Source: Patescibacteria group bacterium (lineage in GTDB: Bacteria > Patescibacteriota > Minisyncoccia > 2-02-FULL-40-12). Taken from it: DNA of 57,066 bases. This document shows positions 22,135 to 27,119 of this stretch, one piece after another; within the stretch, counting starts at the first letter, position 1; each line of letters opens with the position of its first letter. The stretch is taken from NCBI GenBank assembly GCA_038062015.1, contig JBBTXZ010000004.1, forward strand, positions 1 to 57,066, read 5' to 3'. The position numbers were made by a program, and so were the translations under genes. The notes beneath the pieces are model-generated. The model was not told where the DNA came from and made no database searches. It saw nothing but the letters and a program-made list of their open reading frames with translations.

Positions 22135-22211
22135 TGGCGTCCCCGGCGTGACTCGAACACGCAGTCTTTTGCTCCGCAAGCAAATGCTTTTTCCAATTAA
22201 GCTACGGGGAC
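22135..22211 (-). tRNA. tRNA-Arg (anticodon GCG), CCA encoded
   Basis: Hand-folded cloverleaf: GTCCCCG/CGGGGAC acceptor, anticodon stem TTTGC/GCAAA with loop TTGCGGA, T-arm GCGTG-TTCGAGT-CACGC, then G-CCA. Confidence 0.85.
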
Positions 22212-22944: not shown

Positions 22945-23015
22945 GGGCCCGTAGTATAGTGGCAATACACCGCATTCGCATTGCGGAGACGGCAGTCCAA
23001 TTCTGCCCGGGTCCA
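22945..23015 (+). tRNA. tRNA-Ala (anticodon CGC), no encoded CCA
   Basis: Acceptor GGGCCCG/CGGGTCC with a G3:U70 pair. Anticodon loop TTCGCAT. T-arm GGCAG-TCCAATT-CTGCC, an atypical T-loop. Confidence 0.75.
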
Positions 23016-23018
23016 TAA

Positions 23019-26000
23019 ATGTCCGACGAACAAATTCTTAAAGACCTCAATCAAAACCAAATTGAAGCAGTCAAGGCCGTGGAGGGCCCTGTTTTAATTA
23101 TTGCCGGACCGGGCAGCGGGAAAACGGCCACCCTAACTCGCAGAGTCGCCTATATGATTTCTATAGAAATTAAACCAGAGAATATCTTATGTATTACTTT
23201 TACCAACAAGGCGGCGCAGGAAATGAAAGAAAGGATTCAGAATTTATTGGGCCGACTAACGGCAACGCCGTTAGTCGGCACTTTCCATTCAATCTGCGCA
23301 AAGATTTTGAGAAACGAAGCTAAAATTTTGGGATTCACCAAAAACTTCACGATCTATGACGGAGAAGATCAACTGAGCTTAATTAAAAAAACAATGGAAA
23401 CTTTGGGCTTCAGCCAGAAAAATTTTAATCCCTATTCAATTTTAAACAGAATCTCAAAATTAAAATCGGGGCTAGCCTATTCTGAAAGCTATGATTTCAG
23501 CGACGGCAATTATTACGAAAAAATAGTCGGCCAAATTTACAATGCTTACCAAAAAGAACTTAAAACTGCCAACGCCATGGATTTTGACGATTTGATTATG
23601 CTGACCGTGGAACTTTTTGAAAAGAATCCGCAGATTCTGAAAAAATACCAAAGCCAGTTTAAATATCTACTTGTAGATGAATGTCTGCCTTATAATACGC
23701 CTATTCTACTTGCCGATGGTTCAAAAAAAGTTATTGGAGATATTGTAAAAAATAAAGAATCTCTACCGGTACTGACTTACAATCTAAAAACTAGACAACA
23801 AGAATTAAAAAAAATAGTTGGCTGGAAAGAAATTCCGGCTAAAGGAAAAAGATTTTATAAAATAGTGGTGGCTAAAAGGTGCCATAAAAGAAACAGATAT
23901 AAAACAAAATATAAAAAGAGCACTATAAGAACACTGTTCTGCACAGATAACCATAAAATTTTTGCAAACGGTAAATTTGTAAAAACGGCCGAACTTAAAG
24001 TTGGGGATAGGCTACAATGGGAGTCCTCATTTACTAAGCCTAATATGAAATTCTGTAATAAATGTAAAAAGATTTTTCAAACTTATAAATTGCATGAGGC
24101 TAGACACGAAGCTTTTAAAAGAAAGAATTGCGAACTATGTGGGGTTGTATATAAAAGCAGATTTCAATTAAAAATCCATTTAGAAAAACATAAAAATCCA
24201 GAATTTAAAAGAAATTACTCATTAAGCCCTGCGGGATTATCGGTCCTCCAAAACAGAATGCTTACCGATAATCCAATGAATTATCCTGAAATTAAGGCGA
24301 AGGCTGGAAAATCTAGGAGTGATTTTTGGAAGAATCTGTCGCCCCAGGAAAGAGATGAAAAATTACAAAGATTTATCAATCTGCCCGTTTTTAGTTACTA
24401 TAAACCTCCAACAAAACCAGAAAAGATAATCCAATCTTTTGGATTTAACGACCTAATTTACTCTGGTAAAGGCAAAGTTTGGGTAACATTTAAAAACGGC
24501 CAGCATAAATGCCCAGATTTTATCTTAAAAAATCAGAGAAAGGTAATTGAAGTTGCTGACTTAGAATACTGGCATACAGAAGAAGAAATGAACCTTTTGA
24601 AAAACAGATATTCTCAAATAGGGTTTAAGACCTTGATATTAGACGCAAAAGAAGTGGTCGATTCACCGGATGAGATCAAAAAAGAAATACAAAAATTTAT
24701 AGAAGATTGCCCAACTGAAGTAGAAATTATTGATATAGAAAAATTAAAAAATGTAAATGAAAAGTTTGTATATGATATCGAAGTAGAAGACAATCATAAT
24801 TTTTATGCTAACGGAATTCTAGTCCACAATTGTCAAGATACTAATATTGCTCAATATCACTTTGCTAAATTACTTGCTCAAAAATACAGGAATATTTTTA
24901 CTGTCGGAGATGTTGATCAAAGCATCTATATGTGGAGGTCAGCCGATTTCCGGAATATGCTCAATTTTGAAAAGGATTTTCCGGAGGCAAAAATTATCCG
25001 GCTTGAACAGAATTATCGCTCAACCAAAGCAATACTCGCCGCCGGCCAAGGGCTGATTCAAAACAATATTTATCGTCACCAAAAAGGCCTCTGGACCGAA
25101 AACTCGGAGGGAGAAAAAATTTCTATTGCCCAGTTGGATGATGAAAAAGAAGAGTCGCGGTTTATCATTGAAAAAATGAAAAAGCTGATTCAGAAAGGAT
25201 ATAAACTTAAGGATTTTGTGATTCTCTACCGAACCCACGCCCAGTCGCGGCCGATTGAAGAAGAATTTTTGACTCAAGGCTTCCCTTACAAAATCATCGG
25301 CGCCTTAAAATTCTACGAAAGAAAAGAAATAAAAGACATCTTGGCTTATTTGAGAATCTTGGCTAACCCTAATGACTTTGTGAGTTTGCAGAGAATCTAC
25401 AATGTCCCAACACGAGGGATTGGGAAAGCTTCTTTTGTGCGATTCGCTGATTTTATGCGGAAGAATAAATTAAATTTGTCTGACGCACTATTAAAAGCAA
25501 AAGAAATAAAGGAGTTGCCGACCAAAGCCCGGTTCAGCCTGTACTCTTTCGGAAAAACATTAGAAAAGATGAAAGAAAAGGCAAAAGATTATGGACTGAC
25601 TAAACTGATAAAATTCATAGTCAGCGAAATCGGCTATAAAGAATATCTTGATACTAAAAGCGAAGAGGGATATATGCGCTGGGAAAACGTAAAAGAATTA
25701 TTAACCGTTGCAAAAAAGCACGACAAGCTCAAAACAAACGAAGCGATGAATAAATTTTTGGAAGAAGTGGCTCTGATTCAAGAAACCGACCCTATTAGAG
25801 CTAGAACCTCTAACGGGGCGGGCAATCTTGATGAAATTGATAAAGTTCAGTTAATGACTTTGCATTCGGCCAAGGGGCTTGAATTCCCGATTGTATTTTT
25901 GGTCGGCGCCGAAGAGGGATTACTGCCCCATTCAAAAAGTTTAAGTAATCCCATTGAACTGGAAGAAGAAAGGCGGCTCTGTTATGTCGGAATAACCAGA

Positions 26001-26165
26001 GCCAAAAGAAGAGTCTTTATCACTCTAGCCCGCTCGCGCAACATTTTCGGCACTTCTTCGCAAGGTATTTCGTCACGGTTTTTAGATGAAATTCCAAAAG
26101 AAGTAGTTGAACTTAATTCTGATTTTGATTCTTTTGACGAAAAAAGGATTACTGACTATATTTAA
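23019..26165 (+). CDS. pcrA: PcrA/UvrD-type DNA helicase interrupted by an intein
   Basis: AGPGSGKT (motif I). LLVDE / [intein] / CQDTN (motif II, split). Motifs III-VI downstream (VGDVDQSIY; NYRS; MTLHSAKGLEF; LCYVGITRAK). Confidence 0.93.
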   Translation: MSDEQILKDLNQNQIEAVKAVEGPVLIIAGPGSGKTATLTRRVAYMISIEIKPENILCITFTNKAAQEMKERIQNLLGRLTATPLVGTFHSICAKILRNEAKILGFTKNFTIYDGEDQLSLIKKTMETLGFSQKNFNPYSILNRISKLKSGLAYSESYDFSDGNYYEKIVGQIYNAYQKELKTANAMDFDDLIMLTVELFEKNPQILKKYQSQFKYLLVDECLPYNTPILLADGSKKVIGDIVKNKESLPVLTYNLKTRQQELKKIVGWKEIPAKGKRFYKIVVAKRCHKRNRYKTKYKKSTIRTLFCTDNHKIFANGKFVKTAELKVGDRLQWESSFTKPNMKFCNKCKKIFQTYKLHEARHEAFKRKNCELCGVVYKSRFQLKIHLEKHKNPEFKRNYSLSPAGLSVLQNRMLTDNPMNYPEIKAKAGKSRSDFWKNLSPQERDEKLQRFINLPVFSYYKPPTKPEKIIQSFGFNDLIYSGKGKVWVTFKNGQHKCPDFILKNQRKVIEVADLEYWHTEEEMNLLKNRYSQIGFKTLILDAKEVVDSPDEIKKEIQKFIEDCPTEVEIIDIEKLKNVNEKFVYDIEVEDNHNFYANGILVHNCQDTNIAQYHFAKLLAQKYRNIFTVGDVDQSIYMWRSADFRNMLNFEKDFPEAKIIRLEQNYRSTKAILAAGQGLIQNNIYRHQKGLWTENSEGEKISIAQLDDEKEESRFIIEKMKKLIQKGYKLKDFVILYRTHAQSRPIEEEFLTQGFPYKIIGALKFYERKEIKDILAYLRILANPNDFVSLQRIYNVPTRGIGKASFVRFADFMRKNKLNLSDALLKAKEIKELPTKARFSLYSFGKTLEKMKEKAKDYGLTKLIKFIVSEIGYKEYLDTKSEEGYMRWENVKELLTVAKKHDKLKTNEAMNKFLEEVALIQETDPIRARTSNGAGNLDEIDKVQLMTLHSAKGLEFPIVFLVGAEEGLLPHSKSLSNPIELEEERRLCYVGITRAKRRVFITLARSRNIFGTSSQGISSRFLDEIPKEVVELNSDFDSFDEKRITDYI
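23682..24830 (+). mobile_element. intein (383 aa) in helicase motif II with a non-LAGLIDADG endonuclease insert
   Basis: Starts with Cys (CLPYNTPILLADGS, block A). TDNHKIF (block B). FVYDIEVEDNHNFYANGILVHN (blocks F/G), followed by +1 Cys. The 1149-nt length is in frame. The removed sequence reconstitutes VDE-CQDTN, compared with the canonical VDE(F/Y)QDTN. Confidence 0.88.
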
Positions 26166-26191
26166 CGAACGCTCTTCCGGAAGAGTGTTCG
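26166..26191 (+). terminator. hairpin terminator after pcrA (weak U-tract)
   Basis: CGAACGCTCTTC-CG-GAAGAGTGTTCG. Confidence 0.45.
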
Positions 26192-26431
26192 TTGTCTCCT
26201 ATTCTCTAATAAAAAAGATTATAAAAAATGTTCCTGTTGCGAAAAAAGCATCAAAATTACTTTATATAAAAATAAGACTTACCGCAGTGGGCATTACTTT
26301 TACTTAGAATACTGGGAATGTCCAAAATGTTATTAGGGAAGAAAAAAATCTTCTAAAAGCAAAACTTCTGTAAAAAACGTCTACCAAGAAGCAACCCAGG
26401 AGCGATACCCTCATAATTAAGTCTGGTGTTA

Positions 26432-26465
26432 TGAATTATATTACACGTGTAATATAATTCAGTAG
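26432..26465. repeat. 34-bp element, copy 1 (contains a perfect 28-bp palindrome GAATTATATTACAC|GTGTAATATAATTC)
   Basis: Read directly. 31 of 34 positions identical to copy 2. Confidence 0.9.
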
Positions 26466-26476
26466 TACCTTACAAG

Positions 26477-27073
26477 ATGAAATACGGTGAAATAAGAACC
26501 AGAAATAAACAAAAAAGTTTTATATTTAACTTGCTAAAATCGATGGCCGTCGCAGGTTCATTTTTAATTGCCGCATCAAATAAACGTTTTTGGCTTAACT
26601 TTTATCTAAACCACCATAAAGAACTTAATAGATACAAAAAGATAAAAGAAAAACGAAAAATTTATAATGCTATAGCGTATTTAAAACAAAAGAAATTTTT
26701 AGATATTGCTGAAAAACAAAATGGGATAATAGTTAAAATAACTACAAAAGGATATGAAGTTATTGAATTCTACGAATCGCTAGAAAAAATGAAGATTAAA
26801 AGACCAAAAAGTTGGGATAGAAAATTCCGATTAGTGATTTTTGATATTCCGGCTAAAAAACAGGGTGCCCGAGCCGTCTTTATCCAAAAGTTAAAAGAGA
26901 TGGGATTTTATATGTTCCAAGAAAGTATTTGGGTTCATCCCTATGATTGCATAAGTGAAATAGCTACTTTAAGAAAGCTATTTGAAATAGAACAGTATGT
27001 AAAAATTATGACGACCGAAGCCATAGAAGAAGAATATAAATTATTAAGACACTTCAAACTGCTGAACTACTGA
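26477..27073 (+). CDS. PaaX-like / winged-helix plus Cas2-like-fold putative regulator
   Basis: WDRKFRLVIFDIPAKKQGARAVFIQKLKEMGFYMFQESIWVHPYDC matches the PaaX-C/Cas2-like module common in CPR. A wHTH-like segment precedes it (AIAYLKQKKFLDI...KITTKGYE). Confidence 0.65.
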   Translation: MKYGEIRTRNKQKSFIFNLLKSMAVAGSFLIAASNKRFWLNFYLNHHKELNRYKKIKEKRKIYNAIAYLKQKKFLDIAEKQNGIIVKITTKGYEVIEFYESLEKMKIKRPKSWDRKFRLVIFDIPAKKQGARAVFIQKLKEMGFYMFQESIWVHPYDCISEIATLRKLFEIEQYVKIMTTEAIEEEYKLLRHFKLLNY

Positions 27074-27104
27074 ATTAGATTACAGGTGTAATTTAATTCA
27101 GTAG
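27071..27104. repeat. 34-bp element, copy 2 (imperfect palindrome)
   Basis: TGAATTAGATTACAGGTGTAATTTAATTCAGTAG. Overlaps the stop codon of the regulator and abuts the GGAGGG SD of rsmA. Confidence 0.9.
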
Positions 27105-27119
27105 GAGGGCTACCGGGAA

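Follow-up and report, generated by a model that had tools for sequence, protein, structure and literature searches.

Textbook intein endonucleases belong to the LAGLIDADG or, rarely, to the HNH type. Endonucleases of the EDxHD or Vsr-like kind are known from group I introns, from free-standing genes and from genes lying between the halves of split inteins (PMC2677866; PMC3239194), and the survey of Gosselin et al. 2025 (preprint, 10.1101/2025.01.02.630785) states that, apart from its own cases, Vsr-like endonucleases had been reported only with split inteins. The ties between EDxHD nucleases and inteins described so far are therefore of two kinds, a separate gene between split-intein halves or a gene on the antisense strand. 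Here, we describe a stretch of 57,066 nucleotides from a groundwater Patescibacteria group bacterium, a member of the Candidate Phyla Radiation (CPR) (GenBank assembly GCA_038062015.1, contig JBBTXZ010000004.1, positions 1 to 57,066; hereafter the window), in which the helicase gene pcrA very probably carries, within its motif II, a class-1 intein with an in-frame zinc-finger, Vsr-like module predicted to be a homing endonuclease. Such an EDxHD domain, in frame and within an uninterrupted intein, would correspond to the fused end state envisaged by the Dassa model of endonuclease capture.

The host gene is a PcrA/UvrD helicase precursor of 1048 aa encoded by an open reading frame (ORF) at 23019..26165 on the forward strand, which is also the strand of all features of this gene given below. 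Its Pfam matches to UvrD-helicase (2.7e-80) and UvrD_C (1.4e-76) are divided by a match to Intein_splicing. The complete intein, from Cys1 to Asn383, lies at 23682..24830 (1149 nt = 383 aa), where the original prediction had placed it, and the junctions in the ORF read ...KYLLVDE|CLPYNTPILLADGS...FYANGILVHN|CQDTNIAQY. Read directly from the DNA, the Cys1 codon TGT is at 23682-23684 and the terminal Asn codon AAT at 24828-24830, and the following +1 Cys codon of the C-extein (TGT, 24831..24833) replaces the Tyr of DEYQD, so that motif II is split between E and x (DE|xQD). Taken alone, the insert matches Intein_splicing at 6.1e-13 (49.3 bits, cut-off 35.8), the NCBIfam model intein_Nterm TIGR01445 over intein aa 1-94 at 1e-05 (26.4 bits, cut-off 24.5) and intein_Cterm TIGR01443 at 2.1e-09 (37.3 bits, cut-off 15.6). 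The N-terminal splicing (Hint) part, aa 1-115 (23682..24026), contains block A (CLPYNTPILLADG) and block B (T88-D-N-H91), the latter read from the sequence and falling inside the Pfam Intein_splicing match, and the C-terminal splicing part, aa 344-383 (24711..24830), contains block F (VYDIEVEDNHNF) and block G (NGILVHN) and ends with His-Asn before the Cys at +1 (VYDIEVEDNHNFYANGILVHN|C); the blocks named beforehand were thus all recovered. The last 40 residues of the intein match solved inteins such as the Spl DnaX mini-intein (7cfv, 6.8e-07), and the cyanobacterial DnaX mini-intein, the best match of this C-terminal part, sits just after Walker B (Novikova et al., PMC4760082). Inteins in UvrD are themselves known, 16 having been catalogued by Novikova et al. 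2016 (PMC4760082).

Removal of the insert gives a 665-aa product, which aligns to residues 3-650 of Geobacillus stearothermophilus PcrA (1pjr) at an E-value of 8e-183, with a gapless motif II (kyllvDEcQDtn vs qyihiDEyQDtn); the flanks are, as had been expected, continuous with UvrD motif II. Judged from its sequence, the insert is a class-1 intein in motif II (Walker B) of PcrA, and it is predicted to splice. The intein has a guanine-cytosine (GC) content of 0.318, lower than that of the extein (0.389) and of the whole window (0.403), in which neither a second copy of the module nor a second intein was found. As there is no further ORF of at least 60 aa within the insert in any frame or on either strand, the nuclease is encoded in frame, and an antisense or out-of-frame endonuclease ORF of that size is ruled out.

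This organization differs from that of the known systems in which an intein and a nuclease of this kind occur together. In the "fractured genes" reported by Dassa et al. 2009 (PMC2677866), which share with the window the nuclease superfamily, the association with inteins and hosts in DNA metabolism including helicases, the intein is split and the endonuclease gene has its own start, whereas the window holds a single ORF running from extein through Hint, endonuclease and Hint to extein. The actinobacteriophage inteins of Gosselin et al. 2025 (10.1101/2025.01.02.630785) are likewise full-length inteins with a Vsr-like/EDxHD nuclease, but their endonuclease is on the opposite strand, while that of the window is on the same strand and in frame, with no antisense ORF of at least 60 aa. 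Canonical LAGLIDADG/HNH inteins (Novikova et al. 2016, PMC4760082) have in common with the present one the splicing domain and the preference for conserved ATPase motifs in proteins of replication and repair, and differ from it in the type of endonuclease, the window giving no LAGLIDADG or HNH signal. A search of open-access full texts found no account of either an EDxHD domain in frame within an intein or C2H2 fingers inside one; a Thermosynechococcus paper mentions DUF559/EDxHD beside inteins, but not specifically enough to be taken as an earlier report.

Neither LAGLIDADG nor HNH matches the central region of the intein at E<=1 in Pfam, and neither is matched in NCBIfam or PHROG; an endonuclease of these two families was rejected on this ground, in agreement with the original prediction, and the search of PHROGs gave nothing meaningful. 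The region at intein aa 241-343 (24402..24710) is supported, by sequence comparison and structural modelling, as a Vsr-like, EDxHD-type nuclease domain with the restriction-endonuclease fold, which is predicted to cleave DNA. An alignment of 41 sequences (A1), numbered along a fragment that corresponds to intein aa 171-346 (window 24192-24719), has E77, P108-D109-F110, E120 and W127 invariant (intein E247, P278-D279-F280, E290 and W297) and D123, H128 and Y140 (intein D293, H298 and Y310) conserved in at least 90% of the sequences. The candidate catalytic residues are E247, D279 (in PDF), E290, D293, H298 (in WH) and E301/E302, each of them invariant or conserved in at least 90% of the sequences, and all are retained in the intein of the window. 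Among the 41 relatives, Pfam matches were obtained to DUF559 (four, best 1.1e-04), Tox-REase-7 (four) and Vsr (two).

The AlphaFold model built from the 41-sequence alignment, which covers the helical arm and the nuclease, has a mean predicted local distance difference test score (pLDDT) of 89.6, with 93-98 in the alpha/beta domain, and shows a restriction fold. In a Foldseek search of this model against the PDB, the top match is the homing endonuclease I-Bth0305I (3r3p; E 7.3e-04, probability 1.00, target-normalised TM 0.62), followed by PvuRts1I, DUF559 3hrl, Bax1 and Vsr 1vsr. Profile alignment by hhalign of A1 with I-Bth0305I and with Escherichia coli Vsr, whose sequences were taken from their genome records, gave probabilities of 86% (E 4.9e-06) and 75% (E 2.5e-05), respectively. 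In these alignments, E77 (E247) is equivalent to I-Bth0305I E170 and Vsr E25, D109 (D279) to D196 and D51, E120 (E290) to E206 and Vsr F62, and H128 (H298) to H213 and H69. Taylor et al. (PMC3239194) name the aligned E, D and H as catalytic, and discuss the additional acidic residue, at the position of Vsr Phe62, as a possible further divergence of the active site of the homing family from that of Vsr. The Vsr/DUF559-like nuclease first proposed can thus be sharpened to the EDxHD type, with the E, D and H all in place. Only fold search and profile-profile alignment reveal this kinship; a search of the family profile against PDB sequences was discarded, as it returned just spurious Dronpa matches with E above 0.2. 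Viral predicted structures (BFVD) matching the model are annotated as DUF559, NUMOD3, Vsr endonuclease, homing endonuclease and C2H2-type, and one of them, A7KV39, has 266 aa, the same length as I-Bth0305I.

Compared with I-Bth0305I and the EDxHD family (PMC2677866; PMC3239194; 3r3p), the module of the window is alike in the nuclease fold, in the catalytic E/D/H, in the acidic residue at the Vsr Phe62 position and in its bipartite order, namely an N-terminal, putatively DNA-binding region with NUMOD-like helices (here aa 125-232) and then the nuclease (aa 241-343). It differs in its context, I-Bth0305I being a separate ORF in a group I intron and other members being free-standing, whereas here the module is a domain in frame within a contiguous intein. 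It also differs in the DNA-binding arm, which has NUMOD2 and helix-turn-helix motifs in I-Bth0305I and C2H2 fingers with an "NNPM" helical segment in the window, and in the last motif residue, apparently Glu rather than Asp, at a sequence identity of about 22-27%. I-TevI-type homing endonucleases have a comparable elongated, modular design that combines a small nuclease, a zinc element and NUMOD-type helices (in part, PMC3943268), but with an N-terminal GIY-YIG nuclease and a Cys4 finger in free-standing or intron-encoded proteins, against a C-terminal restriction-fold nuclease and C2H2 fingers embedded in an intein. In addition, R2 retrotransposon proteins and engineered zinc-finger nucleases unite classical C2H2 fingers and a nuclease of the PD-(D/E)xK superfamily in one polypeptide, and the R2 structures 9nl2 and 9dou appeared as weak Foldseek matches (E about 0.16); the window differs from these in having no reverse transcriptase, in its bacterial or phage source and in the branch of the nuclease, and the resemblance is architectural and does not indicate homology.

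Upstream of the nuclease, two Cys/His motifs are supported, on sequence grounds, as C2H2 zinc fingers that are predicted to bind zinc. Finger 1 (24054..24107; C125, C128, H138, H142) contains CNKCKKIFQTYKLHEARH with the spacing C-X2-C-X9-H-X3-H, a shortened C2H2, and finger 2 (24129..24191; C150, C153, H166, H170) contains CELCGVVYKSRFQLKIHLEKH with the spacing C-X2-C-X12-H-X3-H; both motifs are present where they had been noted. Finger 2 has the classical C-X2-4-C-X12-H-X3-5-H pattern in full (C-X2-C-X3-Y-X5-L-X2-H-X3-H), including the hydrophobic core positions, while finger 1 departs from it in its X9 spacer. In an alignment of the finger regions of five inteins (window, P0001, L003, L004 and P0002; 36-52% identity), seven of the eight zinc ligands are invariant; only His142 in finger 1 varies, being replaced by Gly in P0002 and retained in the other four. 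The profile of this region has 14 PDB matches at E<=0.01, every one a classical C2H2 protein, the best being HIC2 (2.4e-06) and ZFP57 (9.7e-05), to which both fingers align as a tandem pair, finger 1 with a 3-residue deletion. As the ligands are conserved and the tandem alignment requires only this deletion, finger 1 is short rather than degenerate: the original prediction of a textbook finger preceded by a degenerate one holds for the textbook finger and for the presence of the preceding one, but not for its supposed degeneracy.

Between the fingers and the nuclease, at intein aa 171-240 (24192..24401), lies a three-helix "NNPM ... F(I/M)NxP" segment with a flexible linker, a putative DNA-binding arm. 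In the AlphaFold model, the helices occupy fragment residues 13-25, 32-47 and 51-62 with pLDDT of 89-96, and the linker drops to about 59. The further motifs that had been named, DNPMNYPEIKAKAGKSRS and KCPDFILKNQRKVIEVADLEYWHTEEE, are both present where stated. The segment had been called NUMOD3-like, and among the relatives there are traces of such a likeness, as NUMOD3 is matched weakly in 2 of the 41 (E 0.057), one relative has a precomputed PF07460 match, and three of the BFVD structural matches bear a NUMOD3 annotation; the segment itself is real, and its NUMOD3-like character is weakly suggested.

The module is not restricted to the window. A word-index homologue search with the 232-aa central region returned 192 candidates, none of them significant, and an exhaustive HMMER search with intein aa 171-346 found 737 cluster representatives at E<=1e-3, of which 127 reach E<=1e-10. 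Regex scans of the best 150 of the 737, which define the counts of forms and motifs given here, recognized an intein-embedded form in about 67 and a free-standing form (<=400 aa) in about 71. Among the embedded forms, the N-extein ends with DE in 55 and the C-extein starts with CH in 48 and CQ in 7; therefore, these inteins occupy Walker B/motif II of DExH/DExQ ATPases. Pfam scans of ten hosts recognized UvrD, ResIII/DEAD/Helicase_C and Helicase_C_2, an XPB-like helicase and a clamp-loader ATPase (DNA_pol3_delta2), and left one host without a recognisable family; in P0016 (754 aa), a clamp-loader-type ATPase with DNA_pol3_delta2, the intein that holds the module interrupts Walker B at DE|C. 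The N-terminal Hint part of the window matches 41 of the 150 representatives at E<=1e-3 and the C-terminal part 51 of them, so the splicing domains are related too. In P0003 (aa ~611-1009), an SF2 helicase with two inteins, the second intein holds a DUF559-like stretch (FSDFLVNGWYIEVDG), and in-frame restriction-fold nucleases may therefore not be confined to a single lineage of inteins.

With a tighter 10-sequence alignment, used for the search of related loci, the module was found on eight IMG/VR viral contigs, in seven of which an intein with both junctions, DE| and N|CH, interrupts a phage SF2 helicase; the eighth (L006) begins inside the intein, and only its N|CH junction is visible. A tblastn search of the module against 50,697 GenBank phage records gave no match, and the family is so far metagenomic. 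The two free-standing members inspected are surrounded by small phage- or plasmid-type ORFs; a "fractured gene" context was considered for the free-standing relatives and discarded, these two not lying between split helicase halves. Because free-standing relatives exist, the earlier suggestion of a composite endonuclease built from free-standing parts of homing endonucleases is plausible. The combination had also been called unusual, and this is true of the literature but not of nature, given a metagenomic family of 737 representatives: intein and EDxHD endonuclease are each of a known kind, and their in-frame combination with zinc fingers is widespread in metagenomes.

Regarding the distribution of alleles, the PcrA protein of the window is also encoded on ENA contigs from the Hainich groundwater well H51 (0.1 um fraction). 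Its closest homologues are from Parcubacteria and Patescibacteria metagenome-assembled genomes (MAGs), are up to 84% identical and have no motif II intein. Among the 120 best PcrA homologues, the motif II intein is found in the protein of the window alone, and all 112 of the 112 intein-less close homologues have DE-Y-QD; the intein thus forces a change from Tyr to Cys in a near-invariant residue of motif II. On contig L020, which comes from the same well and is syntenic (recG, 230-aa ORF, pcrA, ksgA), the pcrA allele is intein-less, reads DEYQD and has 83% aa and 81% nt identity to the window. Two less closely related PcrAs, one from a Saccharibacteria MAG (L003) and one from a Patescibacteria MAG (L004), have orthologous inteins at this site, with an intein aa identity of 60-61%. 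A different intein, in motif III (HN|SIY) and without the Vsr-like module, is the only intein in five close Parcubacteria PcrAs (P0169, P0172, P0174, P0181 and P0251), and in L003 (451-4626) a motif III intein (GDxxQ|C...HN|SIY) coexists with the one in motif II.

The codons GAYGAR|TGYCA are common to all junctions compared. From the comparison of the junctions with L003 and L020, the homing site would consist of a 5' half in the N-extein flank (23652..23681, ...TTTAAATATCTACTTGTAGATGAA) and a 3' half in the C-extein flank (24831..24860, TGTCAAGATACTAATATTGCTCAATATCAC), the first 15 nt of the latter being identical to those of the Saccharibacteria allele L003. In the 60 nt on the 3' side of the site, the nt identity of the window is 0.75 to L003 and 0.67 to L004, which are distant and carry the intein, and 0.58 to the syntenic, intein-less L020; in the 60 nt on the 5' side, it is 0.65, 0.55 and 0.78, respectively. 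The 60 nt at 24831-24890 may therefore represent a co-conversion tract from a past homing event, which we regard as a lead only.

On these grounds, the Hint domain would excise itself post-translationally and join the two halves of the helicase into a functional PcrA, the mature protein carrying DE-C-QD in place of DE-Y-QD. The endonuclease between the Hint halves would be bipartite, with the two C2H2 fingers, the three-helix NUMOD-like arm and its linker, and the C-terminal nuclease. In the free intein or in the precursor, fingers and helices would bind the DNA flanking the empty site (about GAYGAA|TAYCAAGA...), and the nuclease would cut nearby, probably by a metal-dependent mechanism in which His298, like its counterparts in Vsr and I-Bth0305I, acts as general base. 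Repair by recombination with the intein-bearing allele would then insert the intein and, with it, the Cys codon that must replace Tyr, and mobility of this kind might continue at the present day.

Several observations weigh against this scenario, in which splicing and cleavage are predicted from sequence and model. The zf-C2H2, DUF559, Vsr and NUMOD3 assignments are made from family profiles and predicted structure, and the sequence of the window alone scores low with the corresponding Pfam models: zf-C2H2 reaches 18.5 bits against a gathering score of 25.2 (E 0.0027), zf-C2H2_4 on finger 2 also stays under its gathering score (E 0.0025), DUF559 (PF04480) reaches 13.4 bits against 20.6 (E 0.07-0.18), Vsr (PF03852) gives no match, and NUMOD3 (PF07460) gives none at E<=1, below its curated threshold. 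A single-sequence AlphaFold prediction of the entire intein, which also covered the finger region, was unusable (pLDDT 31.6). Against 3r3p, the query-normalised TM is 0.36 and the root-mean-square deviation 5.8 A, the low TM being due to the helical arm, which has no counterpart in 3r3p. The final Asp of the motif (I-Bth0305I D222; Vsr D97) is absent and a Glu may take its place, the conserved E301 and the invariant E302 sitting one residue off Vsr D97 in the hhalign alignment. Moreover, the window departs twice from the A1 consensus, with EVAD for EVGD and TLIL for CLYL, and the co-conversion signal comprises about 60 nt in three comparisons.

These departures from consensus bear on the reading that the intein is fixed and vertically inherited, and that its endonuclease is a dead remnant, either kept as a scaffold for folding or splicing or lost too recently to have decayed. 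Both, Ala for Gly in EVGD and Thr for Cys in CLYL, fall at conserved positions, and the activity of this particular copy is a prediction from sequence. Many inteins do hold decayed endonucleases. Mini-inteins are also noted in the Gosselin et al. 2025 preprint (10.1101/2025.01.02.630785). However, in the window all candidate catalytic residues and all eight zinc ligands are kept, the ligands are conserved in the related inteins with the single exception in P0002, and the reading frame has neither frameshifts nor stops. The sporadic distribution of the intein with an empty-site allele in the same well, its GC content 7 points under that of the extein and the possible co-conversion tract 3' of the site also speak for an endonuclease that may be active, and we consider a dead remnant rather unlikely.

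An alternative of about the same weight, likewise improbable in our view, concerns the Cys/His motifs, which might not read sequence but serve as structural zinc knuckles or as a distance-determining linker like that of I-TevI, or might bind no zinc at all. The zinc finger of I-TevI does act as a linker, and the sub-threshold Pfam C2H2 scores and the non-classical X9 spacer of finger 1 are both consistent with such a role. Fingers that take part in recognition of the DNA would better account for the full classical pattern of finger 2 with its hydrophobic core, for profile matches that are limited to DNA-binding tandem C2H2 proteins, and for the distribution of the motif in the family. Upstream of the module, 48 classical C2H2 motifs were counted where shuffled sequences predict 0.1, and the motif is present in 35 of the 67 intein forms against 2 of the 71 free-standing forms. 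The number of fingers varies from one to about five in the seven IMG/VR contigs that include the finger stretch, as would be expected of modular DNA readers; L007 (2453-6025) has about five and L010 (2606-5911) about three classical C2H2 fingers before the same nuclease module, both in helicase inteins. Finally, a nuclease from another branch of the restriction-endonuclease fold, such as a DUF559/Vsr-type repair nickase or a Tox-REase-type toxin that may introduce nicks or act at mismatches instead of producing the double-strand break of homing, could explain the Pfam matches of the relatives and the presence of 3hrl and 1vsr among the Foldseek matches, Vsr itself being a nickase (PMC3384342), but it is quite implausible in view of I-Bth0305I as the best structural and profile match, an order from N-terminal DNA-binding arm to C-terminal nuclease that is that of the EDxHD family (PMC3239194), an acidic E290 at the Vsr Phe62 position that is invariant in A1, and intein-embedded and free-standing phage-like contexts that suit homing.

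A homing endonuclease targeted by classical C2H2 fingers in bacteria and phages would be a natural counterpart of engineered zinc-finger nucleases, and such modules are a possible source of compact modular nucleases. A further proposal, which we put forward only tentatively and consider doubtful as a whole, is that the intein of the window belongs to a large undescribed lineage whose members specialize on the Walker B "DE|C" codons of helicases and ATPases with a P-loop, and whose endonuclease amounts to a natural zinc-finger nuclease, with a variable set of one to about five classical C2H2 fingers and a NUMOD-like arm steering an EDxHD nuclease. Gain, loss and swap of fingers might then have retargeted the same intein, in phages and CPR bacteria, among hosts that are not orthologous, namely clamp loaders and helicases of the UvrD-like, SF2, XPD-like and XPB-like types. 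The fidelity to Walker B DE|C across unrelated ATPases makes such host-switching of inteins directly testable.

As for the neighbourhood of pcrA, a 198-aa ORF with a PaaX_M-type match (26477..27073, forward strand) lies between pcrA and ksgA, within a stretch of low GC content (26166-27119; 0.26-0.31). This ORF is absent from the syntenic L020, where ksgA directly follows pcrA, and the stretch looks like a small insertion beside the intein-bearing gene. Upstream, a tRNA-Ala(cgc) (22945-23015) stops 3 nt short of the start codon of pcrA (23019), and a tRNA-Arg(gcg) (22135-22211) is located on the other strand, immediately upstream of a divergent 225-aa ORF.

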